A stretch of 62,511 nucleotides of DNA, counting the filler, from Jimgerdemannia flammicorona (Eukaryota), in NCBI GenBank assembly GCA_003990765.1. It is 2 parts of 2 records of this genome, joined end to end, with 100 filler letters (N's around TTAATTAATTAA, not from the genome) between each part and the next. Parts side by side here need not be neighbours in the genome. Positions count along the whole stretch, not along the records: positions 31,316 to 62,511 come from RBNJ01000409.1; 1 more part is not named here. The stretch is one strand, 5' to 3'. Both the position numbers and the translations under genes were made by a program. This document shows, one piece after another, positions 3,611 through 57,300 of this stretch. The notes under the pieces are model-generated. The model saw nothing but the letters and a program-made list of their open reading frames with translations. It made no database searches and was not told the origin of the DNA. The number at the start of each line of letters is the position of its first letter. Within the stretch, counting starts at the first letter, position 1.

Positions 3611-3613
3611 ACT

Positions 3614-11951: not shown

Positions 11952-11952
11952 T

Positions 11953-29133: not shown

Positions 29134-29412
29134 TGCACAGGTGTTGTTTGGTGCGATATAAAAAATATGGGTGCGTTTTATAGGGTGCGGAGATTTGGGC
29201 GTTTTGCGACACGAGACATGATGGCATCATACCCCATACGTCAATATTCGGTAGTTTTGAATCCGCCTGCCTTAGAAGTAACTCTTATTAACTAATTCTC
29301 CGCGACACATGTTCCCGTGACACTCCATGCCATCCATCCCTTTTATGCGTACATACACACGTAACCCAGAGTCAATTGCCCCGCCGATTTAGCACACAAC
29401 CACTTTCCTACT

Positions 29413-33177: not shown

Positions 33178-33191
33178 ATATAGTTATCATA

Positions 33192-37558: not shown

Positions 37559-37578
37559 GATATAGTTATCATATATAT

Positions 37579-39255
37579 TGTGACAAGCAGTAGAATTTTA
37601 CTGCCAAAATTATAAATTAGCTATATACTATATCTAGTATACTAAGTAACTAAGACTGCTTTACTGTGCCAACCTATGTAATTAGTTAGAAATATCAGAA
37701 ATAGTATATTTATCTATACTGAACTAGTATATTATACTAGTCCAGTATACTATACCAAACTAGTATACTGTACTGGTCTAGTATACTATACCATCCAAGA
37801 ATACTTATTATAAATAGTTATTTATAATTAGCTATATAATAATCAGATATGTAGTAGCCACAACTATATAAAATACCCCAGAGACAATAGTGAATAAACC
37901 TCAGTTCAAAATTAAATCTAAAGTAATAGCTTTCCTTTTCACTCTGGTCTACTTTTTAATATAAAGCTTGAGATTTACTACTAAAGTTCAAGTAAAAAAC
38001 TTTAAAGAGAAATCTACTACTTAAGGAATAAGCTGTCTTTCAAGAAGTCTACTATATTTTTAATTCACTTATCAGATAAGCCTGAAGTCCCTCTTATTAC
38101 AAAGCTAGTCTGTTAATACAACTTTATAGTAGAGCCAGTCCATCTAATATAACTCTATATAAATAAAGCTAGTCTTGATATAACTTTATCAAGAGAAGAG
38201 AAGAAAATCTGAGTTATTTTTCAGAGAAGCTCACTGATTCAGGAAGAATCTATATCATTCAAGTTATCTAAGTTATTATTTGAGAAACCTGTTATTTCCA
38301 GAGAGTTCATTATAAGAAATCTTGCTATAAGCTAGTCTCTTGATATAACTTTGCCAAAAATCTGCCATCTGAGTTCTCTAAGTTATCTGAGTTATTAAGT
38401 TATTTGTTATTTCCACAAGAGCCCACTGATTTAGGAGAATCTACACTATCTGAGTTATTTTCCAGAACCCCACTAATTTAGAAGAAATCTGCATCATTTA
38501 CTATTTTTGAGTTATCTAAGTTATCTAAATTATTCAAGAAGTTCACTGATTTAGAAAAATCTGTACCAAATCAAGTTATCTACAGAAATTGTATACTTTT
38601 GAAAATGAGATCATCATGCTATATAAGAAGATTATTATGTAAAATTGTATACTTTTGGAGATCATCACCTAAGAAAGAAACTGCTAAATTGCCAGATTAT
38701 CTTATATAAAGAATCCTGCTCATGCTATATAAAGATTGCTACTATTATATGAAATTACCACTATACCCAAGAACTATCTCAATAAGGAAATTAACTATTA
38801 TATCCAGATTGCTTATTATACTACTGAAAACTAATAAGGAATCTAGAATATTTTATTACTTTTTGACAAAGTAACTAGAGACTCAAGCTAACTATATTAA
38901 CTCTCAATCTTGTAATTTGCCTCAATTGAGCCAGATACATTACAATAGGGAGGCTTTTGTACCATTTGATATATCATTGATTATATAAAGATTACCTTAT
39001 TTTGATATTATTAAAATTTTCTTATTATTCTTTAGACTATATATAATTAATCTCTTTAGATATATATATATTTCTTTATTACTATAGGTCATAATTTTGC
39101 TAATTGAGAAGAGGTTCTTTCCTATCATCAAAGTATATATAGTATATCTTAAAAAGTACTAATGAGTTCTGTGATATTTCTATAAAGATATATACTAATA
39201 TTTACTTTCTCTTAAATATAGATAATATTGTTATCTTCTAACTTAATATATATGT
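37579..39255 (+). mobile_element. Decayed gypsy relic (LTR-like part plus RT remnant) hosting element B
   Basis: TATA/AATAAA core at 37854-37905. About 39215-39240 reads like (Y)xD(D)IVIF and appears to continue after 52235. Confidence 0.4.
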
Positions 39256-39387
39256 TGTGATATATACAATTGACAATGGAGTACTGGTGACTGCTAAGAT
39301 CAGACGACATAATGGCGTGACAATCAAATAGATAGCCTGACCCATTAGGTGATCATCCCAAAAGAAGACAAGATGATCCGAGCCAAA

Positions 39388-40449
39388 ATGAAGACCACAT
39401 TATTTAAGGAACCATACTCCGCCTCAGGGATTGGTACCAAAGAACCAAGTACCCACCACACAATGCCTCCCATTCGCCGATCCAACCAGACCTCCCGCCG
39501 CTCTATCCCTTTGCCTGGCCCAAAGACCCTGATCTTTGAAGCTATCAAGAAGGCCATCTGGCGCCCAGATACTTCTGAACACTTGAACTTCTACACTGAG
39601 GACCTTGGACACTTCATCAACTACCAGTATATAATGACCCAACAGCTCAAAGATACTACCGAACGAATGACCCTCTGGTATGACTATGAAATCGGACACT
39701 GCCTTTGCAATGAGACTTAAGAAGACAACCGAGAAGGCCTTATTACCGAATTGATAACCACTAGCCAGCTAATCAAGAGAGCCCTCTGTGTCTACCAAAT
39801 CTTCTACCATATTCCCTGGGCCATAGCACACTTGCAAGGAGTAACAGCTGGCAGCCTCTCCTGCCTTTCAACTGAAGATACTGACTGGATAGAATCTGAA
39901 GTAGCCAACTCTATTGGCAGCAACCGCGTCGCCATAGGAAGCCAACAAACCGAACCTACTCAGCCAGGTTTCCATACCACCCTACTCCAAGACAACCATC
40001 AAGGTCACCTAATGAGTCTTATGGAGATATTTGAAGGACCACTCATTACCATAGAAGCACCCGTTAGAGCTACCCCAACCACCCACCACCCTGCCAGCCA
40101 CAATTCACATCTCATCATTTGGGAACCGAATCAAGAAGAAGCCCAAGAGGTCCCTGTCTTTAAAGAGGAAGCCCAAGAACTCTAAGACCCTGCCCCTGAA
40201 GAAACCCCCTCTGACACTGAAACTGACGAGTTTTCAGAAGAAGAAGAGGAGCAACAGAGAGTCTACCAGTCCTCTGTCCACATTCAAGTTGTTCAAGGGT
40301 TGGAGAATGTTGTTGAAGATGACTGGCCACTTTTCTACCCCCTCACCTCTTGGCTGGCGCTTCCCCCTTTTGAGGAGAGGTATGATGAAGAAGAAATCTT
40401 AACCCAGCAAGATTTGCCCACCATGGATGAAGGGTACTATTTCCTCTAG
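39388..40449 (+). pseudogene. LTR-encoded ORF of family B (5' LTR copy, two CAA->TAA stops)
   Basis: Same length (1062 nt) and frame structure as the intact 49815-50876 copy. Confidence 0.8.
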
Positions 40450-40494
40450 AAGCACCACCTGTCAGTCATGAGAATTGTGCAGCCTTCATGTCAG

Positions 40495-40716
40495 CAAGTC
40501 AGCAAGTCCGAATCCAGCATTGCTACCCAGCACAACCATTTTCAGTGTTTTGTCAGCAAGTCCAAATCCAGTGTTGCTACCCAGCACAACCATTTTCAGC
40601 ATTTTGTCAGCAAGTCTGAATCCAGCATTGCTGCCTAGCACAACCATTTCCAGTGTTGCTACCCAGTGCCACTGTTTTCAGCATTTTGTCAGCAAGTCCG
40701 AATCCAGCATTGCTAT
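40495..40716 (+). repeat. 54-bp tandem repeats in LTR B U3 (also at ~50925-51142)
   Basis: Unit GTCAGCAAGTCCGAATCCAGCATTGCTACCCAGCACAACCATTTTCAGCATTTT, about 3.5 copies. Confidence 0.85.
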
Positions 40717-41811
40717 CCCCTATAACTCAATCCATAGTAAACAATGGCCTGTACCTCACATCGTGCAAGCCAATAGCATAGCAAATGTTCGCCACAATGT
40801 AGTATACCTTAGCTGCATCCATAGCTAGCAAACTTGTATAAATAACCCATATTCTTAGAGTGAATAAACCTCAGTCAGTTTGTGTTTAAAAGTAAAAAGG
40901 ATTATAAAGAAACCACTGCCTCCAAGAGACCGGAAAATTCTGAGAACAAGATAACAATCTAGAGCAACGGATCGCTTGGAAGTTTGAGTTAAGGAATTTC
41001 TCTTACCGCCTGAATTTCAAGTTTTGCCACCACAAAAAGGATTCAAGACCACGAACTGCCCACAAGTCAGTCAGTTTATATTTAAAAGTAAAAAGGATTA
41101 TAAAGAAACCACTGCCTCCAAGAGACCAGATAAATTCTGAGAACAAGATAACTAGAGCAACAATTGCTTGAGGTTTGAGTTAAAGAATTTTCTCTTGCCA
41201 TGGAAAGAAAACATTACCCGACCGCCACCATTTGGACCATGCATTCGACCACCATTCGAGACCTGAGACCCAGCCAAGGATTCAAGACACAACTGCCATG
41301 CATTCAGACTGCCATTCGGACTGCGCATTCGACTGCCATTCAAGATTCAAGACCCAGAAACCCAAGGATACCCAGCCAAAGGATACTAGACTGCCAAAGA
41401 CCGACCCGCTGCCAAAGACTTGAACAACTGCCAGGAACCTTTCAAGTTAACAAGTCAAGATGGACGAGTGAGCTGTCAACCTCTGTTTTCTCAACCTACT
41501 GTGCCACGAACTGCTTAAAGCCAAGCCCGTCATCGCTGCATAAATTCAAGTTCGCTGCCAAGTTATTCGCCGCCCTTTTCCACTAAAGAATTGAGCCATT
41601 GATGTCCTGAGCCAACGAACAATTGAATGACCTCCCCATCGAACAAATCGAAGTTCTGCTATTATCAAATATTGCATGTTTCGAATGACCTGATCACGTG
41701 ACTATCGACCCGTAACCATCGCGAATGCACTCACATCTATCGCGTGCTTCACCAAGTGGCACATTGAGCCATGACAGAAGCAACTAGGGATATAAACCCA
41801 ATGCCACATTT

Positions 41812-41828
41812 TGGAGGCTCAACTGGGA
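41812..41828 (+). promoter_or_regulatory. Primer-binding site (possibly tRNA-Gln)
   Basis: TGGAGGCTCAACTGGGA lies 3 nt after the LTR end. It resembles the TGGAGGTTCCACCGAGA-type complement of tRNA-Gln. Confidence 0.55.
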
Positions 41829-41877
41829 AAGTTTTCAAAAGACTTGACCATTTGGCTCAAGAACCCAGCTATCTACA

Positions 41878-44100
41878 GTGGAGAACTTAGCAGGACCAAG
41901 TCAGCAACCAAACCAGGGGCAGCAACAGCCCTCCTCAGCAGAAAAGAAAGCCCACACCCTTGTCAGAACAGTAGCCAGGACCCTACTCAACACCAGTAGC
42001 CAGAAAACTGAATCAGAAGAAAGAAGTGACCCAGATTACAGTTTGACTTCAAGAGAAAGGAGACAACTCAGAGGGCAATCAGAACCCCCCCTTCAGATCC
42101 AAGACTTAGGCCAAGAAGAAGAAGAGGATATCCCCAAGGAGTATCAGACCCTTATCCATAGGAAGAACTCAGACAGAAGTGACTACATAACTACTGTTGT
42201 TACTCGAGTCACTCCACTAGACTAGGTAAACTTTGAAACATCAGAAGGAGAAGAGGACTACCATCCATATCAACCAGAGCAAGATGATGATTGGGGATCA
42301 GACCATCAAAGGGATGAATTCAACCTATACTATTATCCAGACAGCAACACTGACCCACAACAGGGTGAACAAGACTTCACTACTTCACAACAGTAAGGGG
42401 CAGATGAACTCACTATCAGTTATATCAGTCCACTCCCACCATCAGTTGCTCGAACTTCAGTACCCTGGTCACTCACACCTCGCCACTATCACCAGTTTAT
42501 TAGAAGATCTCCACCACTACCCAGGACTTCAACTCCAGCATTAATTAGAAGAGCCAGATTACCCTCACCCTCACCAAGACACCACCCTCTGCCAGCACTA
42601 CTAGATCATCAAGTACTAGCACCACCACCTTCTCCATCACCCCAAGGATCTGCCAGATCCCCCACCCCTGAACAATACTCAGATAGTGAAGACAAGCCAG
42701 ACATGAGCTACCTTCAGAAGTTCCATGGTGCAGACAATGAAGATATTGAGGAATTCTTTGGAGAAATTGAAGTTCAAGCAGCTGCCAAACAATGGGATGC
42801 TGCAAGAAAACTCAGAATTGTGGAGTCACTCCTGAGAGGACCAGCCCTACAGAGATATAATCAAGCCAAGCAAGCTGGAGGAGGAATCCATATAGAGGAA
42901 CTGAATGATGGCCTTCAACCTGATAGAAACCATGTAGCAAGGTACATAATTCACAAGGCCTGGCTCTGTGCCCAGTTCAATGGATTCGAGCACCAACAAG
43001 AAGTACAGGAGGCTTTAACCTATATGAGCCAAGCTGCCAATGAAACCCCCAAGAGTTTCTACCATCGGATTCAAGCTCAGATGATCAAGGCAAACCTTCA
43101 ACCAGCAGTCCAACTGGCCCTAGCCTCAACTACCTTCCTCAATGGCTTATACCCAGAACTCCAAAGGCAAGTTATCAGGATGGGATATCGAAACATTGAA
43201 CAGCAAGTTGCTGGAGCACAAGGATGTTGGGAAGCAGATTATAGATCAGTACAATAAGTACAAGGCTATTCTGAGCCAATCCGAGCTGAAACCCCAAGGA
43301 CCTGAGGAACAACCATGGAGCAAGAGAATGCCTTCCTCAGAGCCCAGATAGCCAACTATGAGGACAGACCAGCACCTACAAATCTGACTCCATTCAGGCA
43401 ACCACAGCAGCAGCCACCATCAAGAGTTCAAGAAGACCCCATGACAACACTCACCAAGCAAATAAAGGACCTGGCCATCGCGGTTGCCCAGCTGAAGAAC
43501 CAAGGTAGAAGACAATAGGACTACCATCATGATAACAGACCAGACTACTGGCAACAAGACAACAGAGGTCCTGCCCCCGCACTACCAGCTACAACTACAG
43601 CCTCATCATCAACTGGTTCCTATGGTCCCACCTGCTTTACCTGTGGAAATCAAGGCCATATCCAGAGGAATTGTCCAAGGAACCAATCCACCCAGTCCAA
43701 TGACAGAAATGTCAACCTCTTTCAGGTAGATGAAGAGACTCAGGAAATGGAAGAAGAAGCAGCCTGGCTCCATGGTCAAGAAGATGACATCTACCCATAC
43801 TTCAAGGCTTTTCCATCCAAGGTGATATGGGAAGCTACCCCCACAGAGACTAGAGGATGAGGAAGACCATGAAGGAACCCCCCACCTCAACTACCAGTAA
43901 CAGTATCCACCAGTAAGTATCCATGACATGGCCATTCTTCTTCAGATACTCCACAAGAACAGAAGAAGCGAGTTAGAAGAGATACTCCTGAACCAGAAGC
44001 CAGACCATCTAGGACAACCCCCAGCTCTACCCTGCCAGACCTTGAAGAAGATGAGCATATGAGCATAGAATCTTTAGCTGATGAAATGCCCATCAGGAAT
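41878..44100 (+). pseudogene. gag: Element B gag
   Basis: LQKFHGADNEDIEEFF...LLRGPALQRY; QAANETPKSFYHRI; FLNGL; CCHC CFTCGNQGHIQRNC at 43633-43674. Ends are approximate. Confidence 0.85.
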
Positions 44101-44149
44101 GAGAGACTAAACCCCAAGGGACCAAGACACCGAAGAAGCAGCAAGCCCC

Positions 44150-47100
44150 ATGCAGCAGCCTCACTTTGGGAACATATCCGCCTACAATGCTGGTCTTATA
44201 GTTGAGCAAGTCCTCAAGAATATACCAGAGGTCAGGCGAAAATTCCTGAAAGAAGCCAAGAAAGATACCAAGAGACTTCCAGTCCAAGGACCACACACTC
44301 AAGAACCTAGTACTATCCACACAGTCCATGAGAGCCAGCGACATGAACATCAATCTACAAGACTCGCCAATGAAAAAGTGCATGGTGAAAATGCCAGAAT
44401 TCTCGTCAATACTAGAGCAGCAGTATGCATTATCACCCAAAGGATGTTAGAGCAAATTGGATGAGAAATAGATGAAGGAACCAAAGCAAGAGTTATCATG
44501 GCCGACGGATCAGCTTCCACACCCCTTGGACTTGTCAGAGACATCTCCATTCAAGTTGGAAAGGCCTGCCTCAATGTACCCAAAGCTGTCATGACCCCTG
44601 CAATCTCCTATGATCTGATCCTGGAAACTGACTGGTTAAGCCGAGTTGGAGCCAATGTAGATATCAAGAAACAACTCCTGGTCTTCTCCATTCATGGACA
44701 GAAGCACAAGATGCCCATTGACTTGAAAGGATTATCCAAAAAGACGAACCAAGCCTCAGAAACAGAATGGCAAGGATATGGCAACACCCCCACTACTACC
44801 AAGGATGAAAGCGAGGCCAATTTCCTACAAGAACTAGGAAGTGATTTTGATGCCCCAAGGGACCAAGAAAGTGAACAAGAAGACTCTTTCATTGGAGTTA
44901 TTAGTGTTGAAGGCCTGGAAGAAAGCATTGATAGAGCCATTAATGTAAGGGTAGCACTTGAGTTTGCAGGACCTTCTGCTCAACCACCACCACCACTGGT
45001 AGAAAATCGGATCATGCAAGCCTTTTGTCGAGGCATATGTGAACACTTTATCAGCTTCCACTCACCAAGAGATGATTGCAGCAATTGCCGAATCCTGAAT
45101 CTCAAGAAGGTTCCAATGCCAGAAATTGATGACAAGGATGAATTGAAGCAAGCACCATCCCACAGCCGAATACAACCTCCAACCCCAAAGACCTTCAAGA
45201 AGACCTATAAGGAAGGACAGAAGATCCTTGCCTGCCAAACATTCGAGTCCCTTACCATCGAAGGAGAAAGCAACAGCTCCTACACTATCACCCGGGCCCT
45301 CCAGATCACACAGCCCACCTATGACAAGTATCAGAAGAGATTCCCTACCAGTAGGGAGGTCAAACAGCAAAATGAAGACTTTGTCAAGAAGGGACATTGT
45401 GATTGTGGAAAAACCTTTACCTGTTACTGGTGTGAACATCAAGATGTTCACCTCAGTGAAGATGTCTACAAGAGCCGAGTCAAAAGAAAGGATCCCACCA
45501 TGCAAGAACCTCGAATTCGCTGGGCCTGTCGGAAGTGCAAAGAAATCAACCATGAAGGAGATTGCAAGTTCAAGAGCAAGACCTCTATCTGGGACCTACC
45601 ATTGGAAGTTCTTGCCATCATTTGCTGGTACTGCCACTCTCATCAAGGAAAAGAAGGTATCAATCTTACCTTCATCCTTATGGAAGCTCTGGACCCTCTA
45701 GGAAAGACTGGATTCAATTACACAAGAAACTCAAAGACAGGAGCTCATTGGCCTTTCTTCAAACTGGAGCACATAGACTTCTTACCTATAATGACAACAG
45801 CTGAAGCACTATTTCTCAAAGCTCAACCAATTATCCAGGTCAAGCTGCTTTCACCCTGGGCACAGCCACCTCTTGCACAAACAGAAGGATCAGTTGGTTA
45901 TGACCTCTGCCTCCCCTACCAAGCAAGAATCTGACCCAGAAGTACCAGGACTTTTGACCTACAGATCGCACTCACTATACCACCTGGGTATTATGGACAA
46001 TTGGCTTCAAGATCCTCATTGGCAACCAAAGGAGTCACAGTAGAAGGAGGAGTCATCGATCAGGACTACCGAGGTCTCTTGAAGGTCATTATCTGCAATT
46101 CTAGTAGAACCAGCTAATTCTTTAGTCCTATGGAAGTCATCTGCCAAATCCTGTTTATCAAGACATCACAGCTGACCATCCAAGAGGTAGACCAACTAGA
46201 AGATACCAACAGAGGATAAGGAGGCTTTGGAAGCACCAATAGAAATCTATGGACACTACCTATCGAGGTTCATCTAGCAACAGTTGCTCAATTCCGACAA
46301 ATGAGACCTTACATCTGCCATCTAATCCAAGCAAGAGAAGACATCCTCCTGCAGCCCTACCAGCAAAAAGGCCTAGATGTGCACCTACCAGTAGAAGCAA
46401 ACAACTTGATATTTGCACCATTACTGGAGCTTCAAAAGGAATACCACATCCTCCTGGCTAAAGAACGAATTCATGACCAGATGTCACTGATCCACATCCC
46501 TATCAGAAACTTGGGCTTCAAAGTAATAACTATCCCCAAGGGAACAACAATGGGATATTTCGAACCACTGATAGATACCTATAAGGAAGAAGTCTTCGAA
46601 TTCTTGGGAAATGGCAAACCCTCTCCAGTGAGACTGACAGTACCAGGGAGGAAGACTCAGCAAATTCAGCAATCAAAGCCATCGATATCGAGACAACTCT
46701 AACCAAGGACCAGCAACAACAGATACAGGAGTTGATAGAGGAGTATAAAGATATATTTACCACCACATATAATAACTTCCCACCATATCAATACAGAGAA
46801 CACCCTATACATACTGGAGATGCAAGACCAATCCGACAATGACCCTACCGAACACCACATCATCTGATTGAATTTGAACAACAACACATAGATGAAATGC
46901 TATGAAATGGAGTCATCAGACCATCATCAAGCCCCTGGGCTTCACCAGCAATCATAGTACCAAAGAAAGGAGGATGGAGATTAGTTGTGGATTTCAGAAA
47001 ACTCAACAAAGTCACCACAGAAGACACCTACCCACTGCCAAGAATTGATGACCTCATTAATGCCCTCGGAAAAGCCAAGTACATGACCACTACTAACCAG

Positions 47101-49357
47101 TTCCAAGGATTCCAAGTAATACCCATTGCCAAAGAAGATATCTGCAAGACGGCCTTCATCACCAGATGAGGACAGTACAAATATCTATAAATGCTCTTTG
47201 GACTCTGCAATACACTTGCCTCATTCCAATGAATGATGAACTATGTCTACTGGGACCTCATTGGAAGAAATGTACTAGTGTACATAGATGATATAATCAT
47301 CTACTCTGAGACATTCAAGCAGCATTTGCAAGACCTCTGCGAAATATTCAATACCATTCGAAATTCAGGACTCAGACTCAATGCCAAGAAGTGCTTCTTT
47401 GGAAAACATCAAGTTGAATATCTGGGATATGTTGTCTCAGCTCAAGGAATACATGCTGACCCCTGCAAGGTGGAGAAAGTCAAGAACTACCCAATCCTGA
47501 CCTCAGCAAAGGAGACCCTATCTTTCCTTATGCTGGCATCCTACTATCGATGATTCATCCCAAGGTTTTCAGATAAGGCAGCACCTCTCCGAGATATCTC
47601 CAAGAAGGACCAACCATTCTACTGGAAAGAAGAACAACAAAAGTCATTCGACCTACTCAAGAAGGCCCTTACTGAAGCCCCTGTCCTGGTGCGACCAGAT
47701 TTTAGCAAACCATTCATCCTGACAACTGATGCCTCAGCCTTAGGACTTGGATCAATTCTGTCTCAGCAACATGACCAGAAGAGGGAGCATGTTATCGAAT
47801 ATACTAGCAAGGCCACAAACGAAATACAAGTGAACTATGGAGCCACTAAGTTGGAATGCCTAGCAGTAGTTTGGGCTGTGGACCACTTCTGACACTATCT
47901 CTTGAGAAAGAGATTCACCCTCATCACTGACTATCAAGCTCTACAATAGTTGTTCAACAAGCCAGAGCCCTCAGGAATCTTCGCTAGATGGATCATGTCT
48001 CTGCAAGAATATCAGTTCACTATTGTCTACAAGAAAGGTGCTAAGAATTCCAATATCGATACCCTGTCACGAATCCTGCGAAACCAACAAGAAGAGAAGG
48101 AGCCCCCACAAGAGAAGGCTGCTTCCCGCTCACCCAAATGAACCAAGAATTGTGCCTCGCCCTCACCTGGAGTCTGTACCATAGAAGCTTCAAGAAAGGA
48201 ATCCAACCAGCCCACAAGTTGTTTATCCAAAGGAATTTCAAGAAATTCCAAGAAGGCGATGGTGAACTTTGGAGAGTAGAAGGAGAGCAGTACACCTGAG
48301 TTCCAAAGAAGAAGAAATATTGAAGATCCTGATAACAAATCATGACCAAAATACACACCGAGGAATTGGTGCTACAATCACAAGAATCAAGAAGTGATAC
48401 TGGTAGCCCAAGATGAGAAAACAAATTTCAACACACATTCAACAATATGATACCTGCCAAAGATACCGATAAAAGCCTACCAACAGAGCACCATTAATAC
48501 TGATCACAGCACCAGCTAGAGCCTTTCAAAGACTAGGAATAGACATTATTGGACCCCTACCAGTAACCAGCCGAGGAAGATGCTACATCCTCACTATCGA
48601 AGACCACCTGACAAAATGGCCTGAAGCCTTTGCCATTGAGATGGCCGATGCTCAGACAATTATTAGGATCCTGTATGATGAAGTTTTCAGCCGCCATAGT
48701 GTGCCTAAGGAAATCATTACAGACCAAGGCCAAGAATTCATCAACCAAGCCATGAAGACCTTTGTGAGCAACTTCAAGATCAAGCTATGACCAACAACAG
48801 CCTACTACCCTCAGGCAAATGGACTCACTGAACGAATGAACCAGACCATCAAGTGAGGTCTTAGTAGAACTGGAGATCAACTAAACTGGGATATCTATCT
48901 ACCAGCAATTCTGTTCAGCATCCGTACCTCTAAGGCAACCACTACCCAACAGACCTCCTTCTATTTGGTGTATGGCCAGGAAGCACAAGATCCTACTGAA
49001 CCAGTCCAGCTAGATCTGTCAAAACAAGTTACAGAAGAGATCACCCGGTTACACAACATATGCCAGCAAGCACAAGGATTTATCGCCAAGGCATAAGAAC
49101 GACAAAAGAGGTACTATGACCACAAAGCCAACCTTGAACCCCTGCTCATTAGACAAAAGGTTCTGGTGTACCATACCATCATAGAAGAAAATTGGAGTAC
49201 CAAGCTTGAACCAAAATGGGAAGGCCTCTATCTCATACACCAAGTATTCTCGAACCACACTTATCAACTCAAGACCTTGGATGGAGTTATACTCAAGACC
49301 AAGATACATCGCAACCACATAAGACTCTACTACTCAAGAGAAGCAAAACACATTTGA
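44150..49357 (+). pseudogene. pol: Element B pol: PR, Cys-rich/F-box-like insert, dUTPase, dUTPase-like, RT, RNase H, integrase
   Basis: ILVNTRA (DTGA after G->A) at ~44400; PLPRIDD; YIDD at 47281; TTDAS; KLECLAVVW; GIDIIGPLP, TDQGQEF, GLTER; KLEPKWEGLY. Confidence 0.92.
45827..46238 (+). pseudogene. dut: Element B dUTPase domain
   Basis: SVGYDL, LASRSSLA, GGVIDQDYRG, ICQI and RG*GGFGST (all five trimeric dUTPase motifs). Confidence 0.92.
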
Positions 49358-49672
49358 ACAATCCTATTCACTCTGTCTGTGTCATCTCTGCTGGAGATAT
49401 GACAGACGTTTCACTCAGAACTCAAGAAAGCCAACAACATTGGAACCAGACTCAAGCCCATCCACGTGACAGACATTGTTACTAAGAAATTGCCTCAGAT
49501 TACAAGAAATACTATTTCTGATCTGTTCGAATCCCCAGCCGTGACTATGGGAGCCCTCACCCTAGACAAGGATGGCCAGTCCTCACAAATGCACCAGCAT
49601 TCTGCTCATCCCTGGAGTTAAGACCACCCAACTCTGTGTAATCCTCACTGCCAAGGATGGCTCTAATTTTGC

Positions 49673-49682
49673 AAGGGGCAGA
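49673..49682 (+). promoter_or_regulatory. Polypurine tract of element B
   Basis: AAGGGGCAGA directly before the 3' LTR TGTG. Confidence 0.7.
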
Positions 49683-52235
49683 TGTGATGTACACAATTAA
49701 CAATGGAGTACTGGTGACTGCTAAGATCAGATGACATAATGGCGTAACAATCAAATAGACAGCCTGACCCATTAGGTGATCATTCCAAAAGAAGACAAGA
49801 TGATCTGAGCCAAAATGAAGACCATGTTATTTAAGGACCCATACTCCACCTCAGGGATCGGCACCAAAGAACTAAGTACCCACTATACAATGTCTCCCAT
49901 TTGCCGATCCAACCAGACCTCCCACTGCTCTACCCCTTTGCCTGGCCCAAAGACCCTGATCTTTGAAGCTATCAAGAAGGCCATCTGGTGCCCAGATACT
50001 TCCGAACACTTGAACTTCTACACTGAGGACCTTGGACACTTCATCAACTACTGGTATATAATGACCCAACAGCTCAAAGACACTACCGAACAAATGACCC
50101 TCTGGCATGACTACGAAATTGGACACTGCCTTTGCAATGAGACTCAAGAAGATGACCAGGAAGGCCTCATTACTGAATTGATAACCACTAGCCGGCTAAT
50201 CAAGAGAGCCCTCCATGTCCACCAAATCTTCTGCCATATTCCCTGGGCCATAGCACACTTGCAAGAAGTAATGACTGGCAGCCTCTCCCGCCTTTCAACT
50301 GAAGATGCTGACTGGATAGAATCTGAAGTAGCCAACTCTATTGGCAGCAACTGCGTCACCATAGGAAGCCAACAAACTGAACCTACTCAGCCAGGTTTCC
50401 ATACCACCCCACTCCGAGACAACCATCAAGGTCACCTAATGAGTCTTATGGAGATATTTGAAGGACCACCCATTACTATAGAAGCACTTGTTGGAGCTAC
50501 CCCAACCACCCACCACCCTGCCAGCCACAATTCACATCTCATCATTTGGGAACTGAATCAAGAAGAAGCCCAAGAGGTCCCTGTCTTTGAAGAGGAAGCC
50601 CAAGAACTCCAAGACCCTGCTCCTGAAGAAACCCCCTCTGACACTGAAACTGACGAGTTTTCAGAAGAAGAAGAGGAGCAACAGAGAGTCTACCAGTCCT
50701 CTGTCTGCATTCAAGCTGTTCAAGAGTTAGAGAATGTTGTTGAAGATGACTGGCCACTTTTCTACTCCCTCACCTCTTGGCCGGCACTTCCCCCTTTTGA
50801 GGAGAGGTATGATGAAGAAGAAATCTTAACCCAGCAAGATTTGCCTGCTGCGGACAAAGGGTACTATTTCCTCTAGAAGCACCACCCGTCAGCCATGAGA
50901 ATTGTGTAGCCTTCATGTCAGCAAGTCAGCAAGTCCGAATCCAGCATTGCTACCCAGCACAACCGTTTTCAGCATTTTGTCAGCAAGTTCGAATCCAGCA
51001 TTGCTACCCAGCACAACTGTTTTCAGTATTTTGTCAGTAAGTCCAAATTCAGCATTGCTACCCAGCACAACCATTTCCAGCATTGCTACCCAGTGCCACC
51101 ATTTTCAGCATTTTGTCAGCAAGTCCGAATCCAGCATTGCTATCCCCTACAACCCAATCCATAGTAAACAATGGCCTGCACCTCGCATCGTGCAAGCCAA
51201 TAGCATAGTGAATGTTTGCCACAACATAGTATACCTTAGCCACGTCTATAGCTAGCAAACTTATATAAATAACCCATATTCTTAGAGTGAATAAACCTCA
51301 GTCAGTTTGTGTTTAAAAGTAAAAAGGATTATAAAGAAACCACTGCCTCCAAGAGACCAGAAAATTCTGAGAACAAGATAACAACCTAGAGCAATGGATC
51401 GCTTGGAAGTTTGAGTTAAGGAATTTCTCTTGCTACCTGAATTTCAAGTTTTGCTGCTATGAAAAGGATTCAAGACCATGGACTGCCCGCAAGTCAGTCA
51501 GTTTGTGTTTAAAAGTAAAAAGGATTACAAAGAAACCACTGCCTCCAAGAGACCGGATAAATTCTGAGAACAAGATAACTAGAGCAACGATCGCTCGAGG
51601 TTTGAGTTAAAGAATTTTCTCTTACCACAGAAAGAAAATGTTACCCGACTACCACCATTCAGACCGTGCATTTGACCACCATTTGAGACCTGAGATCCAG
51701 CCAAGGATTAAAGACATGACCACCACGCATTCAGACTGCCATTCGGACTGCGCATTCGACCGCCATTCAAGATTCAAGACCCAGAAACACAAGGATACCC
51801 AGCCAAAGGATACTAGACCACCAAAGACTGACCCGCTATCAAAGACTCGAATGACTGCCAGGAACCTTTCAAGTTAACAAGTCAAGACAGACGAGCAAGC
51901 TGTCAACCTCCGTTTTCCCAACCTACTGCGCCACGAACTGCTTAAAGCCAAGCCCATCATCACCGCATAAATTCAAGTTCGCCGCCAAGTTATTCGCTGC
52001 CCTTTTCCACTAAACAATTGAGCCATCGACATCCTGAGCCAATGAACAATTAAACGACCTCCCCATCGAACAAATCGAAGTCCTGCTATTATCAAATATC
52101 ACATGTTTCGAATGACCTGATCACATGACTATTGACTTGTAACCATCGTGAATGCACTCACATCCATTATGCGCTTCACCAAGTAGCACATTGAGCCATG
52201 ACAGAAGCAACTAGGGATACAAACCCAATGCCACA
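49683..52235 (+). repeat. Element B 3' LTR (2553 bp)
   Basis: TGTGAT...GCCACA, colinear with the 5' LTR. Confidence 0.95.
49815..50876 (+). CDS. Intact LTR-encoded ORF of family B (353 aa, unknown function)
   Basis: Uninterrupted frame in the U3 of the 3' LTR. Helical-looking N-half and acidic, aromatic-rich C-tail. An alternative start is the ATG at 49890. Confidence 0.7.
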   Translation: MKTMLFKDPYSTSGIGTKELSTHYTMSPICRSNQTSHCSTPLPGPKTLIFEAIKKAIWCPDTSEHLNFYTEDLGHFINYWYIMTQQLKDTTEQMTLWHDYEIGHCLCNETQEDDQEGLITELITTSRLIKRALHVHQIFCHIPWAIAHLQEVMTGSLSRLSTEDADWIESEVANSIGSNCVTIGSQQTEPTQPGFHTTPLRDNHQGHLMSLMEIFEGPPITIEALVGATPTTHHPASHNSHLIIWELNQEEAQEVPVFEEEAQELQDPAPEETPSDTETDEFSEEEEEQQRVYQSSVCIQAVQELENVVEDDWPLFYSLTSWPALPPFEERYDEEEILTQQDLPAADKGYYFL

Positions 52236-53528
52236 ATGAATATAGAATACTCAAATAGCTCATATATGGAAAACTATTCCTGCTAAGCTGTTATATATTA
52301 TATAGTACTTAAATTTATAAGCTATATATTATTATCATTAACTATATTGATATATACTTTACTTATATTACTTATACTTTTAATTATTATTTTTCACTAG
52401 CTCAAAAATATGTAACTTAGTTATGAATATATTCTTTAGATACTTGGTATATATTACTTATATATAGAATATGTCTTCATCTTAATTATTATTTATTTCA
52501 GCAGTATTTATATTATATTACTCTTTACTATATATTTTTTTCATTACTTTTATACATATTGTTAATACTAGCCTTTATACTTATTTTCATCATTCTTCTT
52601 ATCTTTATAATAGTAGTTATTTTATATATACTTATACTTACTATAGTAATAATAGTGTTAAGATAGCAACTTAATATATCAATATATGATTTATATCATT
52701 CTATCAGTTTTATATTATTCATTAGTAATATGTAAAATATATAACCTATATAAGCTTTAATAAAATATCTCTTCTTACAATAAAGATTATGAGCTCTACT
52801 AGTACTAAGTAGCTATAGTAAATAAATATACCTTTTTAATCTATACTATATTAGAAATATCAAATAATCAGCTTAGTAATATAAGTAGTAATATATATAT
52901 ACTAATTATGAGTATTTCTATAGATATAACCTTAATAAGTATAGAAAACACAGTCTTAGTTATAAGTATAAATATTGTCGATAGGAAGATTATGCTAGTG
53001 GCTACAAAAGCTCAGTTCACTATCACCCTCAATAGTAATGAGGTAAGAGAGTTCTGGAATTCTATCCTTGAGGACAATTCTGATCAATTCTTGTAAGGAT
53101 TGATCTCAGTATTCTAAGGCCCCAGTATTCAGATTAGACCTCTCTAAGACCCCATATTTATTCCTTATTTTGTAGAAGAGAGCTTCATAGATTGGAGAGC
53201 CCCAGATCTCTTTGCTTTCTATGCTGCTAAATGTGATGATATCATCAGTGATGACATCATCCTATATAACATATGTAAAACAGACAAAACATTTATAGAC
53301 CTCATTTTCTTCAAGGATATCCTAACCTCTAGCAGTGATAAAGATAAAGCCTCCATAGTCCTGAACATTCTGCTCTAAGTTTTTAATAATACTAAAATCT
53401 TCTGGCATCCTTTTTCTATATAACTGAATTCTATCAGTATCTTTTTTCTATAATACCCGAATCTTCAGGTACTCTTTTTCTATATTACCAAAATCTACTA
53501 GCATCCTAAACTTGTACAACTACTTGTA

Positions 53529-54276
53529 CAGATATTTGAATTTATACTTACAACTATAGTTTTCTATATTCTAGTATTTTATTTGATTATTGGAATTTAT
53601 ATTTAGCTTTATAACTTAGCAACTATTGAATTATATTTTATATAAATATCTCTCTTATTTTCTTTGAAATAAAGTCAGTTCCAGTTCACTTATACTCAAT
53701 TCTATGCAAGCAATCTAAGAGATAACAAGACAGTTTAAAGAGAAGAAGTTTGAGGACTATAAGATCTTAAGAAGGCACTCCAATAAGAACTTGCTTATAA
53801 TAAACTTATAGTTAGTCTAAGAGATAAATCTTGAAGAGAATCTAATATATTTGAAGAACTCAGCAACTACTATATGATAACAGATACTTGAATTTGTACT
53901 TAGAAGTTTTCTATGTTCAAATATCTCATTTAGTTATTGGAATTTATATTTAGTTTTATAACTTAGCAACTATTAAATTATATTTTATATAAATATTCCT
54001 CTCATTTCTTTTGAAATAAAGTCAATAGTCAAGTATTCAAATACTCAGTATTAAAACTACTCAAGAAGTACAGAAGTTCCAGTCCTCTACTCAATTTCAA
54101 GCAAGCAAATCCAATAGACAACAGAATAGTTTAAAGATAAGAGGTTTGGGGACTATAAGACTTTGGAAAGATACTCTAAAGAACTTACTTATAAGAAACT
54201 TGTAATTGGTCTAAGAGATATACTTTGAAGAGAATCTGATATACTTGGAGAACTTAGTATCTACTATATGATAATA
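53529..54276 (+). repeat. Tandem pair of decayed short LTR-like units (~350 and ~395 bp)
   Basis: 53529-53880 and 53881-54276 are colinear. Each has TATAAATA, then AATAAA, and ends ...TATATGATAA(C/T)A. Confidence 0.65.
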
Positions 54277-54356
54277 TCTAAACCTAAGCCAGAGTTATCT
54301 AAGCTAAGAATAATAGAGATTAAAGATAAAGATATATAATGATAAAATCTCTAGTA

Positions 54357-57300
54357 CCTGCCTTGGACTTCTTTTGCTCAAACCATTCAGAGCGAGCTAA
54401 GCCACACAGACATCCTTTCATGAAAAACAACACATTTTTAAGTTTTCACTTCATTTATACTGGTATATAAGGTGCAGCAGAAGTCTGGCAACAATTCACA
54501 ATAAGTTTTGTCAAAATCCATCAAGTTTTCATAGTATAGTGACCCAAGACTCATCGAGCTCAGAGTGCCTAGAGAGGAGGAGGCCTGGCCTGGGCCTTCC
54601 CAAGAGTTTTGTGGCAGTAGCTGGTCAAGGTGGAGCTGGAGGGCAGGCTGGAGGTCATGGACCAGTAGTAGGATTGGATGGTTGGCACATGGTGGTGGGG
54701 AGTAAGCGGGCAGCTGCTGGGCCTATAGTTGGGGGGCAGCAGGGGCATAGTATTGACAGAGGTGGCCATTAGATGACTGGTTAGCTGGCCAGGGACCCAG
54801 TAGGGATCAGGGGTCCAGAGGTGTAATGGCTGGGACTGACTTTCCTGGGGCTGGGCTGGTGGCTGGGGGTGGGACTGCTGGTGGTATAGTAGCTCCTAGC
54901 GAGATAGTAGCTAGCATATCTAGTAGCAAGAATAAGGCAACTCTAGTAGTAGGAACTGGGGAGCTGGTGGTACAACCATTCTTTCATAAGTTGGTATTAT
55001 CATGGGCAGTCTCTGCCAACTTCTTGGGCCTTGGTCTGTCAGCCAAGGAAGTTCTACAACTGGTGGGTAAGGAGGTTGCAGGGGCTGAGTCACTGAGGTT
55101 TATTCCCTTGGCAGAGGCAGTGGAGGTTGGATTTGTTGAGGAGGGCTATGGTGAAGGCCTTGGAGAAGAGGTTGATAGTCAAGAATGTTAAGGTGGAGAT
55201 AGTGAGATGCCTGAGATGGGACCCACATACAGTGAGGTTGGTGGTGGAAGGACTGCTGATGCTGAGCAGACAGAAGACTAGGATGGTGATTGCTAAGGCT
55301 CTGGAAGGCTTTGGTGAGATGGTGGATTTCGGATTTATGTTCTGGGAGGGCACGAAGTTGAGAAATGGCAATTGTGAGGCAATGGTGCAGCTGGAGAGGA
55401 AGGAGGCAACAGGCCTGGGGTGAGACTGGCTAGAGGTTATTTATGTTGGGGAGCAGAATTGTTGGGTCTGGAGGAGGAAAGGCTCAGAGCAGAAGGAGGA
55501 GGAGCTGTGGGTAGTCCTTGAGGAGCATGATGAGGTAAAGGCTTTGCAGAAAAGAAAATGGGAGGAATTTGCTAAAGATTGGATCTGGATTGAGATAGAT
55601 GATAAGAGAAAGCATTAGTGTAAGGCAAACTGGGAGTGGCTGCAGGCAGTGCTGCAAGTGTCAGCAGAGGAGGAGATTGAAAAGGTAGCATCTGATAGGA
55701 ATCAAATAGAAGGGGTAGAGGTGGCTGAGGTGTCCTTCTCACAGCTGGGGAGAGTGGAAGAATCTGTACATATGCCTGTGATAAGATGGTGAGGAAGAGC
55801 AAGGAGCAGACTTCGAAGAAAATGTTGAGGTGGTTCCAGAAACTCAGATAGAAGACATGATGATGGCTAGGTCAGCAAATGTGCACTGGGAATGTCCAGA
55901 AGCAGGGGAGGTGGTGAGGTTGGATAAGATCTCTGAAGAGGATGAGCTGGTAGATGTTGCTTCAGATGTATCTGTAGACAGAGAATTGCTTCAGGAGCTA
56001 TATAGGACTCTCAGACCTATGACTCTGGGGCCATTGGCGATGGTGGCAGATGGCTAGTTCCAGGCAGTTACATTAAGGAAGTAGATGTGTTTCAGGGTTC
56101 CCCAGAGGCATGGGAAGGATTTCTCAAGATGGTATTACAGGGACTGAAGCTGATGATAGCAATGGTGGCAGCCCTTCTGGAGGATGAAGGGTATGAGGTA
56201 GATGATGACCAAATGGCAGATATCCATAAGGTGGTGTCTGAGCAAGTAGACTTCTTCTGTGGTAGTACCAATGGTGAGAGAATTTGGCAAGCAGTCTGTG
56301 AGGAGCATCAAGACATCATTAAGGGCTGAGCTAAGAAGGTGGTGGTAGTGGCATTGATATCTAAACTCCAAATTTTCTATGATGAAATACAACCTACGAA
56401 TTCTGTCTATCAATATCAATGGTTTGTAAGATAGTATAAAGCAGCGGTGTCTCTTTCGATGGTTGAAAGTCCAGAGGTATGATGTGGTGTTTCTTTAAGA
56501 TATTCAGGTCTATGGTAAGGAGGACTATGAGTCATAGAGTAAGGAATAGTTTGGAGATACTGGTTGGAGTAAGTAAGTTGGTATTCTGATTGGGATTGGA
56601 AAGGGGGAGTTAGTTGATGTGGGAAGTTTTGGTGATTGACTGGTGTGGGGAAGGCTGAAGGAAGGAAAAGGAGATGGACTCTTGGTGGGCTCTGTATATC
56701 TGCCAACAATTGGCAGAGAGCAAAAGCAATGGGTGGAGGAGTGGCTGACTTGGGAGGATTGGGTGACTCTAGGGTTGGACATTTTGGGGGGTGATTTTAA
56801 TATAGTTAGGGACTGTGTGCTAGATCAGTCTGATGGTGGGGCTGGTGTAGTGGTTTCTCCGGGGCTGTCTCAGTGACTTCAGGTGGAAAAGGGCATGGGA
56901 TTGATGGATGGTATATGATTGAGGGTGGGAGATGAGTCAGATCCCTTTACTAGGTGGTATTTTATAAACAATGAGATAGTTGGTACATGGATTGATTGGA
57001 TACTAGTAGCTGAACATTGGAGTAATGTTTTTGATACAGTCAGGATACAGTGGTGCCCATGATCAGACCATTGGAGATTTAAGGTGAGTGGAAGATTCTG
57101 GGGGGGATGGGTGCTGGTGTCTCAACATAGCTCTGCTTCAGCATCCAGTGGAATGAGAGCAATTCATATACTTGGCCTGACAGAAAGTAGGGTGATGGGT
57201 GGCTGGTGGTCTATCTATTGCTGATTTGTGGAGCAGATTCAAACACCTTGCTGGTGCATATTGGAGAGATACCAGGGAGGTGGCAGGAAAGGAGCAAAAG

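Follow-up and report, generated by a model that had tools for sequence, protein, structure and literature searches.

Can the long terminal repeat (LTR) of a fungal retrotransposon carry a gene of its own, and if so, what would its protein do? The question is raised by a locus of Jimgerdemannia flammicorona at which an uninterrupted frame lies inside the 3' LTR of an element whose other genes are broken. The window analysed here is a stretch of 62,511 nucleotides, filler included, that joins parts of two records of this genome. An earlier sequence-only reading of this window had reported an open frame of 353 amino acids at 49815-50876 and had taken it for a transactivator-like or anti-silencing accessory protein. 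The frame was re-found on the + strand, and below we examine its carrier, its history, its relatives and its possible roles.

An open frame within the LTR of a degenerate Ty3/gypsy element

The carrier, element B, is a fungal-type Ty3/gypsy (Metaviridae) LTR retrotransposon. Its two LTRs form a single ungapped alignment with 92.2% identity, start with TGTGAT and end with GCCACA (TG...CA), and the Pfam domains between them follow the order zf-CCHC, RVT_1, RT_RNaseH_2 and rve on the + strand. No clear 4-6 nt target-site duplication is visible at the flanks (...tatgt / atgaa...), which may reflect decay or recombination. As the sequence-only reading had described, the neighbouring pol region is riddled with stops: over gag-pol each frame of 2624 codons contains between 69 and 128 of them. 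The principal features of the element are as follows.

39256..52235, + strand: element B, a degenerate Ty3/gypsy LTR retrotransposon of 12,980 nt (LTR pair, Pfam domain order, TG..CA ends)
39256..41808, + strand: 5' LTR, 2553 nt
39388..40449, + strand: 5' LTR counterpart of the gene, interrupted by TAA at 39718 and 40183
41812..41823, + strand: putative primer-binding-site-like sequence TGGAGGCTCAAC, 3 nt beyond the 5' LTR
43519..43860, + strand: gag zinc knuckle, CCHC (Pfam zf-CCHC, E 7.3e-06)
46906..47892, + strand: reverse transcriptase and RNase H pieces (RVT_1, E 1.2e-07 and 7.2e-14; RT_RNaseH_2, E 2e-32)
48473..48790, + strand: integrase core (Pfam rve, E 1.2e-11)
49673..49682, + strand: polypurine tract aaggggcaga, adjoining the 3' LTR
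49683..52235, + strand: 3' LTR, 2553 nt
49815..50876, + strand: uninterrupted copy of the gene in the 3' LTR, 353 codons counted from its first ATG; family start methionine at 49890

From stop to stop the open frame covers 355 codons. A chance origin for a frame of this length finds no support, since 353 codons were attained in none of 3000 first-order Markov simulations of the LTR, whose longest frames averaged 119 codons and peaked at 270. The distribution of G over codon positions 1, 2 and 3 (0.29, 0.12 and 0.15) is coding-like, and the strand skews of the frame agree with those of the gag-pol region of element B and are unlike those of host genes. Homologues, described below, begin at a methionine that matches codon 26 of the frame (49890), so the native product is probably 328 amino acids long.

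CpG decay of the two LTR copies

The two copies of the frame differ at 70 of 1062 nucleotides, with 69 transitions and no indels, and the stops of the 5' copy at codons 111 (39718) and 266 (40183) both read TAA where the 3' copy reads CAA, all in agreement with the earlier description. The openness of the 3' copy among stop-ridden neighbours might be read as a mark of constraint, a view that the pattern of substitution does not bear out. Since insertion the two LTR copies have accumulated 16 and 15 derived residues, an equal rate. Differences between them are spread evenly over codon positions (25:22:23) and affect 16 codons synonymously and 44 nonsynonymously, while the divergence of the frame is not significantly lower than that of the rest of the LTR (70/1062 versus 129/1491; chi-square ~3.4). 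With ~1.9 new stops expected per copy, the probability of acquiring none is ~0.15. Because decay has been neutral and equal in the two copies, and a stop-free copy arises this often, openness carries no weight as evidence of selection. The open copy is a decaying relic that stayed open by chance and has lost two thirds of its arginines, having kept 7 of the 21 found in its closest homologue. As a point of method, an open frame among broken neighbours is, by itself, no proof of selection.

Mutation in element B has a marked sequence preference. The LTRs differ at 199 of 2553 columns, 195 of these differences being transitions, and the changes fall on 130 of the 236 CpG-compatible columns versus 69 of the remaining 2317. 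CpG observed/expected ratios are 0.41-0.45 in the LTRs and 0.2-0.45 across the element, compared with 1.04 in the genic block. CpG-targeted transitions have struck both LTRs equally since insertion. Classical ascomycete RIP was considered as the mutational process and dropped because the changes cluster at CpG rather than CpA; we read this concentration as deamination of methylated CpG, a process described for transposons of rust fungi (PMC8063080).

This decay revises two details of the earlier reading. An HCLC motif had been singled out in the open copy, yet close homologues read HRLR (the closest) or HHLR at this place, indicating that CpG decay turned arginine codons into cysteine; HCLC was accordingly dropped as a candidate zinc motif. 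Decay of arginine to cysteine, histidine or tryptophan is also visible in close database copies. The basic N-terminus that had been quoted, MPPIRRSNQTSRRS with ...AIWRPD, exists in the window as reported and belongs to the broken 5' copy, the corresponding stretches of the open 3' copy being MSPICRSNQTSHCS and ...AIWCPD.

Protein family, predicted fold and acidic tail

A profile search of 1.84 billion representative sequences returned eight proteins at E<=1e-3, among them P0003 (342 aa, E 1.6e-22), and across three database searches the family yielded 2, 8 and 9 matches. Four of the eight (P0003, P0004, P0006 and P0009) are 28-31% identical to family member P0001. These relatives have frames of 214-342 amino acids with conserved blocks and a homologous start methionine, common to P0003 and P0004, and P0003 and P0006 terminate in acidic tails. 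Preservation of the frame, the start and the predicted fold at 28-31% identity argues for selection on the frame in the master lineage. A pattern scan of bacterial and archaeal contigs with the frame gave 20 pattern matches, none of them confirmed.

We consider it very probable that the frame is genuinely a gene, the third of a Ty3/gypsy family and located wholly within the LTR, the LTR residence of the homologues being assumed. That it has no function, being either a chance frame or a captured fragment that evolves neutrally as a passenger of the LTR, would fit the neutral substitution within element B, the divergence that it shares with the rest of the LTR and the small number of database members; when close copies were tested with BLOSUM for conservative replacement, just one of six comparisons was significant, and one ran in the opposite direction. 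However, neither version of this explanation accounts well for the remaining observations. The simulations speak against chance, and the recent capture of a host fragment, which had been named as the case that would overturn the earlier reading, is not what the family looks like: relatives at ~30% identity have kept the start and the acidic tail, together with an N-terminal domain confidently predicted to be helical, and the strand composition of the frame fits the element and not host genes. We therefore regard a non-functional frame as highly improbable. Long LTRs are commonly handled as non-coding and masked in annotation, which is probably why so few members of the family are found in databases.

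Domain and structure searches place the protein apart from known families. AlphaFold2 applied to P0004 (9 sequences) gave an entirely helical model with a pLDDT of 72.6 and a pTM of 0.65, in which 135 of 214 residues have a pLDDT >=70; the full-length model of P0001 was poor (pLDDT 42.8) and was left out of the fold search. Pfam assigned no family to the frame or to six homologues, and at E<=1 it had no match for P0001, P0003, P0004, P0006, P0009 or P0014. Pfam includes the Tas/Bel and Tax families, and at that threshold homology to either was absent for these six members. A Foldseek search of PDB and BFVD with the N-terminal model gave nothing at E<=0.001, and neither Pfam, PDB sequence nor fold searches detected a DNA-binding or other known domain. 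Several candidates were discarded along the way, namely an arenavirus glycoprotein that was the sole match of the PDB sequence search (E 0.82), nuclear-receptor and talin-like folds that amounted to helical noise among the listed PDB targets (E 1.2-4, TM score <=0.26), and matches from the ESM Atlas, where P0001 had none that was usable and the best score of P0003, 0.88, fell under the 0.9 line. The predicted helical domain is without a known relative. Overall, the protein would comprise ~325-340 amino acids: a short N-terminus that bears arginines, then the predicted helices over ~145 residues, and finally a disordered, extremely acidic tail containing bulky hydrophobic residues.

The tail had been described as very acidic with aromatic residues, and this holds. 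Its last 100 residues contain 27-30 D/E versus 3 K/R, the net charge of the most acidic 40-residue window ranges from -16 to -20 among B-clade members and from -12 to -14 in P0003 and P0006, and clusters of Trp, Phe or Leu follow the acidic stretch (EDDWPLFY, DDFQPMVLNF, DDDDEAPLILNF). Strings resembling nuclear export signals occur near the C-terminus of B (LENVVEDDWPL), P0003 (FQPMVLNFTI) and P0006 (LHDEFADLISF), all of them weak regex matches. At the other end, residues 1-160 of P0001 are basic (pI 8.1). In a regex search for basic clusters, P0001 and the 5' LTR copy share an N-terminal RRSNQTSRR, P0006 has RRAMRTRSRR, and P0003 gave no match. By eye, the family sequences inspected have no hydrophobic N-terminus of the signal-peptide kind.

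An acidic-hydrophobic tail would also suit export signals, histone binding or other short linear motifs.

Place in the LTR, possible roles and known parallels

The frame occupies LTR positions 133 (or 208) to 1194, and is followed by repeats and by a cluster of promoter-like motifs.

50925..51154, + strand: tandem repeats, 54 nt x 3 and 28 nt x 6, directly 3' of the gene (LTR ~1243-1472)
51197..51295, + strand: motif matches CCAAT at 51197, TATAAAT at 51262 and AATAAA at 51290 (LTR 1515, 1580 and 1608)

The CCAAT, TATA-like and AATAAA motifs are kept in both LTRs (40770, 40837 and 40863 in the 5' LTR), and judging from these matches the cluster is a putative LTR promoter, while the tandem repeats have the appearance of enhancer-like U3 repeats. 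Since the gene lies upstream of the repeats, the CCAAT box and the TATA-like motif, it is probably in U3. Under the classical LTR model, the 5' copy would lie upstream of the start of transcription and be silent, and the genomic RNA would bear the 3' copy at its 3' end, a position from which expression requires a spliced or subgenomic message.

This arrangement bears directly on one possible role, that of a post-transcriptional regulator similar to Rev/Rex or CERV, in which the N-terminus would bind genomic RNA and the tail would export unspliced RNA, the protein itself being made from a spliced message. Elements that splice need a means of exporting their unspliced RNA, as CERV provides for Cer1 according to PMC10309623. 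A branch-point-like CTAAT followed by CAG at 49663-49681, just 5' of the 3' LTR, resembles a splice acceptor, and the arginine clusters of P0001, the 5' copy and P0006, together with the export-signal-like strings, are the elements that such a protein would use. On the other hand, no donor of the GTRNGT consensus occurs in the leader (41809-42450), the basic cluster is short and missed by the regex in P0003, the export-signal matches are weak, and neither Pfam nor the PDB sequence search links the protein to a known family. The strongly negative tail is also out of keeping with Rev and Rex, for which we know of no tail with a net charge of -16 to -20 per 40 residues. Taken together, we find a role in RNA export unlikely.

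The transactivator or anti-silencing idea of the sequence-only reading draws solely on the composition of the tail and the position in the LTR. We tentatively favour a self-serving nuclear regulator, most plausibly of the transactivator type, as a possibility that falls short of being probable and that has RNA export and anti-silencing as serious rivals. In composition, the tails of P0001, P0003, P0006 and the copies in the window match an acidic, hydrophobic activation region, a likeness of composition only. In active elements, the protein would enter the nucleus, where its helical domain would bind the LTR of the element or its chromatin, the 54-nt repeats at 50925-51084 being a candidate target, and the tail would recruit co-activators, serving as an activation domain. 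Transcription from the LTR would then be under positive feedback, in a genome where transposons are methylated and silenced.

The same tail might instead bind histones or the silencing machinery, so that the protein would shield new copies from CpG methylation and heterochromatin, or steer integration. VANC proteins of plant VANDAL transposons are analogous to such a factor in outcome. The host assault on transposons at CpG sites is evident from the excess of changes at CpG columns and from the CpG depletion of element B relative to genes, with a precedent in the rust-fungus transposons cited above (PMC8063080). A common selective pressure of this kind would also fit the presence, in the unrelated Gypsy family A of the same window, of an LTR frame of like size and layout. 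This support is circumstantial, however: searches of Pfam, PDB and BFVD provided no domain or fold link to methylation, RNAi or histone-binding families, and elements A and B have each undergone heavy decay, so these copies at least were not saved by the gene. An anti-silencing function is improbable on this balance. It is rather doubtful, though there is nothing specific against it, that the gene encodes a genuine accessory protein that does something else, be it as part of the particle, in the control of copy number or directed at the host; composition is not enough to tell which. The failure to detect a fold analogue is consistent with this, as is the fact that all functional inferences derive from low-complexity features.

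Whole genes within LTRs are rare, and the only textbook case known to us is sag of MMTV, a superantigen gene in U3 whose product acts on host immunity. Like the B gene, sag is a complete sense frame of ~320-350 codons inside the LTR, lies 3'-terminally on the genomic RNA and depends on a message of its own. Unlike the helical and acidic protein of a fungal-type Ty3/gypsy element, it comes from a vertebrate retrovirus and specifies a membrane glycoprotein, and we found no likeness of the B protein to a known U3 gene product in sequence or fold (no match in Pfam; none at E<=0.001 in BFVD or PDB). Foamy-virus Tas/Bel1 and Bet, HTLV Tax and HIV Nef are products of 3'-end regulatory genes that reach into U3; Tas and Tax, of roughly 300-350 amino acids, possess acidic activation regions and transactivate the LTR of their own virus. 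Tas/Bel1 and Tax resemble the model proposed for B in being 3'-terminal accessory genes in or overlapping U3. The viruses concerned differ in having env and known splicing, and the B family matched none of these proteins in Pfam (E<=1) or BFVD. Accessory genes mark the divide between "complex" retroviruses and simple retrotransposons.

Among retrotransposons, one parallel is CERV of the C. elegans element Cer1, which is required for export of genomic RNA and is made from a spliced mRNA (PMC10309623). Both CERV and the B protein are novel, family-specific accessory proteins of Ty3/gypsy-type elements encoded apart from gag-pol; they show no sequence relation that we could find, and nuclear action for the element's own expression, described for CERV, is proposed for B. 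Additional frames have also been described between pol and the 3' LTR, or in antisense, in plant elements (aORFs; PMC7264820), in the internal region upstream of gag-pol in rice Retrosat2, RIRE3 and RIRE8 (ORF0; PMC3485330), and as an 'add. ORF' in fungal chromoviruses (PMC2864245). Their carriers resemble element B in being Gypsy elements of >12 kb with LTRs of ~2.5-3.2 kb, and the frames resemble the B gene in being extra, fast-evolving and lineage-restricted with no assigned function, yet the portions of these reports available to us describe placement inside the LTR for none of them. Our searches of the LTR retrotransposon literature, much of it accessible in part, likewise turned up no conserved gene inside an LTR, and its position as a whole accessory gene in the LTR makes the B gene a rare case.

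The LTR frame of element A, a chromovirus with a dUTPase, offers a comparison within the window.

5161-6177, sense: LTR frame of element A, broken by stops
12292-13308, sense: second copy, broken by stops
2054-2932, sense: third copy, broken by stops

This frame of ~338 codons runs from LTR position 337 to 1353, ends ~190 nt before the sole TATA-like motif kept in all three copies (~1545), and has a single database homologue (62% identity). Its C-terminus, PLFLDDYFIRDDAIDGD, is acidic and aromatic. The earlier statement that the layout of B mirrors that of A is therefore sound as regards size, sense orientation and C-terminus, and fails if read as kinship. Carrying out the profile-profile comparison suggested with that statement gave an hhalign probability of 1.4-1.5%; tblastn found no match between the two LTR proteins, and HMM scores of 2.3 and 1.9 bits were equalled by 56 and 86 of 2000 shuffles. 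A collinear hhalign stretch (YEIGH..L versus YYQIGCLL etc.) was no better than chance, and homology was dismissed. The two also differ in their carriers and in that every copy of A contains stops.

It is speculative, and on present evidence rather doubtful, that at least two unrelated Gypsy families, A and B, have each gained a U3-embedded gene for a nuclear regulator of ~330-340 amino acids that drives or de-represses its own LTR against silencing by CpG methylation. We would attach similarly little confidence to the joint reading in which each protein combines a lineage-specific helical domain with an acidic effector tail and the elements show 'complex' retroelement behaviour. Should such genes govern transcription, silencing or the export of RNA, they would make it easier to understand how Gypsy elements expand in fungal genomes whose repeats undergo methylation and deamination. 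A gene within the LTR would also make each solo LTR a potential stand-alone copy of that gene.

Element B and the gene in its LTR

Element B is a degenerate Ty3/gypsy LTR retrotransposon, as its LTR pair, the order of its Pfam domains and its broken frames together establish. Its LTRs, delimited by self-comparison, form a single ungapped alignment at 92.2% identity and run from TGTGAT at the start to GCCACA at the end. A PBS-like TGGAGGCTCAAC lies 3 nt after the 5' LTR and the polypurine tract aaggggcaga immediately precedes the 3' LTR, while the flanks carry no clear target-site duplication. Within the interior, Pfam recognizes a zinc knuckle, reverse transcriptase, RNase H and integrase core in Ty3/gypsy order, spread across frames that are broken by 69-128 stops each (2624 codons per frame). 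In pol, several hundred residues after a protease-like motif (44465-45934) have no Pfam match; they include the cysteine-rich strings CDCGKTFTCYWCEHQ and CRKCKEINHEGDC and end in a dUTPase-like GSVGYDL, a motif not called by Pfam, so that the dUTPase is only putative.

Features of element B
39256-41808: 5' LTR, direct repeat of 2553 nt
49683-52235: 3' LTR, direct repeat of 2553 nt
49815-50876, + strand: open copy of the LTR gene, 353 codons from ATG to stop (355 from stop to stop)
50925-51084: three tandem repeats of 54 nt that immediately follow the stop codon of the ORF

The LTR gene corresponds to LTR positions 133-1194. An earlier sequence-only reading had described a 353-codon frame inside the 3' LTR, next to a stop-rich reverse transcriptase and integrase, with a 5' copy that differs by transitions, two CAA to TAA stops and no indel, and we confirm this description. 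Between the copies, 70 of 1062 nt differ within the gene, 69 of them by transition (195 of 199 differing columns over the whole LTR), and the 5' copy contains exactly two premature stops, at codons 111 and 266, where TAA stands against CAA in the 3' copy. The N-terminal peptide strings quoted in that reading come from the broken 5' copy, not the open one. When the LTR was simulated 3000 times with a first-order Markov model, no run reached 353 codons in any of the six frames; the longest frame averaged 119 codons and was 270 at most. The codon-position composition is of coding type (G = 0.29, 0.12 and 0.15 at positions 1, 2 and 3). The LTR gene was a real ORF when element B inserted.

Decay of both copies after insertion

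Intactness of the 3' copy could be taken as a sign of constraint, an inference that we reject from comparison of the two copies. Differences are distributed 25:22:23 over codon positions 1, 2 and 3, and the differing codons comprise 16 synonymous and 44 nonsynonymous cases. The closest database homologue served as outgroup for polarising residue changes: the open 3' copy has 16 derived changes and the broken 5' copy 15, with 8 more not polarised. Divergence of the ORF (70/1062) is not significantly lower than that of the remaining LTR (129/1491; chi-square ~3.4). CpG-compatible columns account for much of the change, as 130 of 236 differ (55%) against 69 of 2317 others (3%). These two rates, applied to the 41 sites that lie one transition away from a stop, predict about 1.9 new stops for each copy and a probability of ~0.15 of acquiring none. 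Both copies behaved as neutral DNA after insertion, and the open 3' copy, lucky rather than protected by selection, is a relic.

The decay has also altered the encoded protein. Only 7 of the 21 arginines of P0001, the closest database homologue, remain Arg in the open copy, while 8 are now Cys, and the pI of the first 160 residues has fallen from 8.1 to 5.0. The HCLC motif, one of the features singled out earlier, reads HRLR in P0001 and HHLR in P0002, another relative; we rejected it as a metal site, since it is a product of CGN to TGN decay. The same Arg to Cys/His/Trp pattern is seen in the close database copies, which have probably decayed themselves.

CpG-targeted transitions are confined to transposons, as seen when 39256-52235 is compared with 15000-31000, and observed/expected CpG is 0.41-0.45 in the LTRs, 0.20 in the element B interior and 1.04 in the genic block. 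The LTR gene shares the strand asymmetry of element B (C > G and A > T on the sense strand), which is absent from the host-gene block at 15-31 kb. That island (15418-29226) has long uninterrupted frames and a GC content of 44-60%.

Genes of the host-gene island
15418-17031, - strand: ankyrin-repeat protein
20582-21352, + strand: MIR-domain protein
24414-25934, + strand: UbiA prenyltransferase
28069-29226, - strand: zinc-type alcohol dehydrogenase

A protein family of the element

Nothing else within the window resembles the LTR protein, and a collection of prokaryotic contigs gave no homologue match. A word-indexed search of 5.8 billion proteins identified two relatives among 851 candidates: P0002 and P0001, the latter 325 aa long and 76% identical. 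When 1.84 billion representatives were searched exhaustively with a profile, 8 proteins matched at E<=1e-3, 6 of them at E<=1e-10, including P0003 (342 aa, E 1.6e-22), P0004 (214 aa), P0006 (247 aa) and P0009 (149 aa), and a profile search of a larger set gave 9 hits among 6760 candidates, adding close fragments and P0014. We assume that these homologues are likewise located in LTRs. P0003, P0004, P0006 and P0009 are 28-31% identical to P0001, and the relatives have in common the blocks LN....D.GHF, W.EYEIGH.L, HQ.FRH.P..I, LS....LE..VA and FEGPPI; P0003 and P0006 also end in acidic tails. P0003 (MPP.R...) and P0004 (MPALR...) start at a methionine homologous to the one at codon 26 in the window ORF (49890). 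The 25 codons that precede it (49815-49889) are open and ATG-initiated in both LTR copies and absent from the predicted protein of every homologue.

Retention of a frame of 214-342 codons with the same start across 28-31% identity requires selection on that frame in a master lineage, an argument that holds whichever decayed copies were predicted as proteins. One test lent no support, in that the amino-acid replacements separating the window element from six close copies showed no consistent bias towards conservative change relative to random single-nucleotide changes: the observed mean was reached in 18-70 of 5000 simulations for P0010 and in 415-723 for P0001, P0013 ran in the opposite direction (4648-4743 of 5000), and the remaining three copies were unremarkable. 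On the evidence available, the LTR gene is a genuine gene of the element B family, and we consider a non-functional frame very improbable.

The family and its fold have no known relatives. Pfam contained no matching family for the ORF (E<=0.01) or for six homologues (E<=1), the sole hit of a sequence profile search of the PDB had an E-value of 0.82, and the ESM Atlas yielded no usable match. An AlphaFold2 model of P0004, built from 9 sequences only, has a mean pLDDT of 72.6 and a pTM of 0.65, with 135 of 214 residues at or above 70, and its all-helical domain at about residues 20-165 supports the presence of a real domain in the LTR protein. Foldseek searches with the N-terminal model found nothing at E<=0.001 in either the PDB (best E 1.2; TM score at most 0.26 for any listed target) or BFVD (best E 0.49). 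Modelled at full length, P0001 gave a poor result (42.8), its long C-terminal half being of low confidence.

LTR context, possible functions and element A

Downstream of the ORF, 28-nt and 82-nt periodicities related to the 54-nt repeats extend to 51154, followed by CCAAT (LTR position 1515), TATAAAT (1580) and AATAAA (1608), all present in both LTRs despite 8% divergence. We infer that U3 reaches to about position 1600 and would hold the whole LTR gene. The gene adjoins what looks like the enhancer and promoter of element B. Under the standard LTR model, the 5' copy would lie upstream of the transcription start and the 3' copy would be the final cistron of genomic RNA, so its translation would need a message that is spliced or subgenomic. 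Immediately 5' of the 3' LTR, at 49663-49681, a CTAAT that resembles a branch point precedes a CAG; the leader (41809-42450) contains no GTRNGT donor.

The protein begins with a short, arginine-bearing N-terminus (RRSNQTSRR in P0001 and the 5' LTR copy, RRAMRTRSRR in P0006), followed by a helical domain that is basic in P0001 (pI 8.1). In P0001 and in the open 3' copy, the C-terminal 100 residues include 27-30 Asp/Glu against 3 Lys/Arg. Net charge per 40-residue window reaches -16 to -20 among B clade members, compared with -12 to -14 for P0003 and P0006. The acidic runs are adjoined by clusters of Trp, Phe, Leu or Ile (EDDWPLFY, DDFQPMVLNF, DDDDEAPLILNF, DEDDSLFL), a composition that we take to be that of acidic activation domains. 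Because of this tail and the adjacent apparent enhancer and promoter, we tentatively rank first a self-transactivator, one of the two roles proposed from sequence alone. These features would also suit an export factor of Rev/Rex/CERV type, which we regard as unlikely; the available part of the CERV report offers a precedent for a novel nuclear accessory protein in a Ty3/gypsy-type element (PMC10309623). They are equally compatible with a chromatin or anti-silencing factor, the other role proposed. The CpG-directed attack on transposons in the window, of a sort described for rust-fungus genomes in the accessible text of PMC8063080, makes that role attractive, and we hold it to be about as improbable as export. 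Some other role, beyond what composition can reveal, is doubtful but ranks next after self-transactivation.

Genes in this position are familiar from retroviruses: MMTV sag lies entirely within U3, and HIV nef and foamy-virus bel and bet are 3' regulatory genes that overlap it. For LTR retrotransposons, fungal or other, the literature searched contained no conserved gene inside an LTR, which does not prove absence. In the available portion of a plant review, extra ORFs sit between pol and the 3' LTR or antisense, and none is described inside an LTR (PMC7264820). In rice, Retrosat2, RIRE3 and RIRE8 combine ~3-kb LTRs with a rapidly evolving ORF0, which, in the part of the article consulted, occupies the internal region upstream of gag-pol (PMC3485330), whereas the element B gene lies within the LTR. 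A survey of fungal chromoviruses mentions, in the sections available, an 'additional ORF with unknown function', dUTPase domains and elements >13 kb (PMC2864245). The LTR gene is a retroelement accessory gene in an unusual place. This is of note for the biology of transposons, all the more since the window contains two unrelated families with such an arrangement.

The second family, element A, is a chromovirus (SH3_Tf2-1 plus Chromo) with a dUTPase domain.

LTRs of element A (88-91% identical) and their ORF
1577-3611, 4825-6855 and 11952-13988: LTR copies
5161-6177, 12292-13308 and 2054-2932 (partial), sense: LTR ORF of ~338 codons

Between its first and second LTRs lie a PBS-like TGGTAGCAGTGG, next to the first, and 1.2 kb of internal sequence, and a polypurine tract precedes the third LTR only; the whole looks like a recombined or nested arrangement. 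Each copy of the ORF carries 3-4 stops but stays in frame throughout the spans given, and the single database homologue is P0015, at 62% identity. The ORF occupies LTR positions 337-1353, ending ~190 nt before a TATA-like motif (~1545) that is the only one present in all three copies, and its C-terminus is acidic, aromatic and strongly conserved. The resemblance noted earlier between the A and B proteins thus stands for size, position and the acidic aromatic C-terminus and does not extend to detectable homology: tblastn found nothing, the profile-profile comparison suggested earlier gave an hhalign probability of 1.4-1.5%, and the B superfamily HMM scored 2.3 and 1.9 bits on A copies, values reached by 56 and 86 of 2000 shuffles. 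The two proteins may be convergent, or diverged beyond detection.

Elsewhere in the window, AT-rich flanks (GC 19-30%) occur at 14-15, 31-33, 52-54 and 60-62 kb. Very strong positive GC skew (+0.30 to +0.50) marks 33000-38000 and 54000-60000; the former holds plus-strand pieces of a non-LTR retrotransposon (weak Exo_endo_phos; RVT_1 E 1.3e-15), and nine ORFs scanned in the latter gave no Pfam hit. An inverted match at 82% links positions 2-338 with 37536-37210. Downstream of element B, the AT-rich flank contains a diverged tandem duplication of ~350-400 nt (53528-54274, 72.6% identity).
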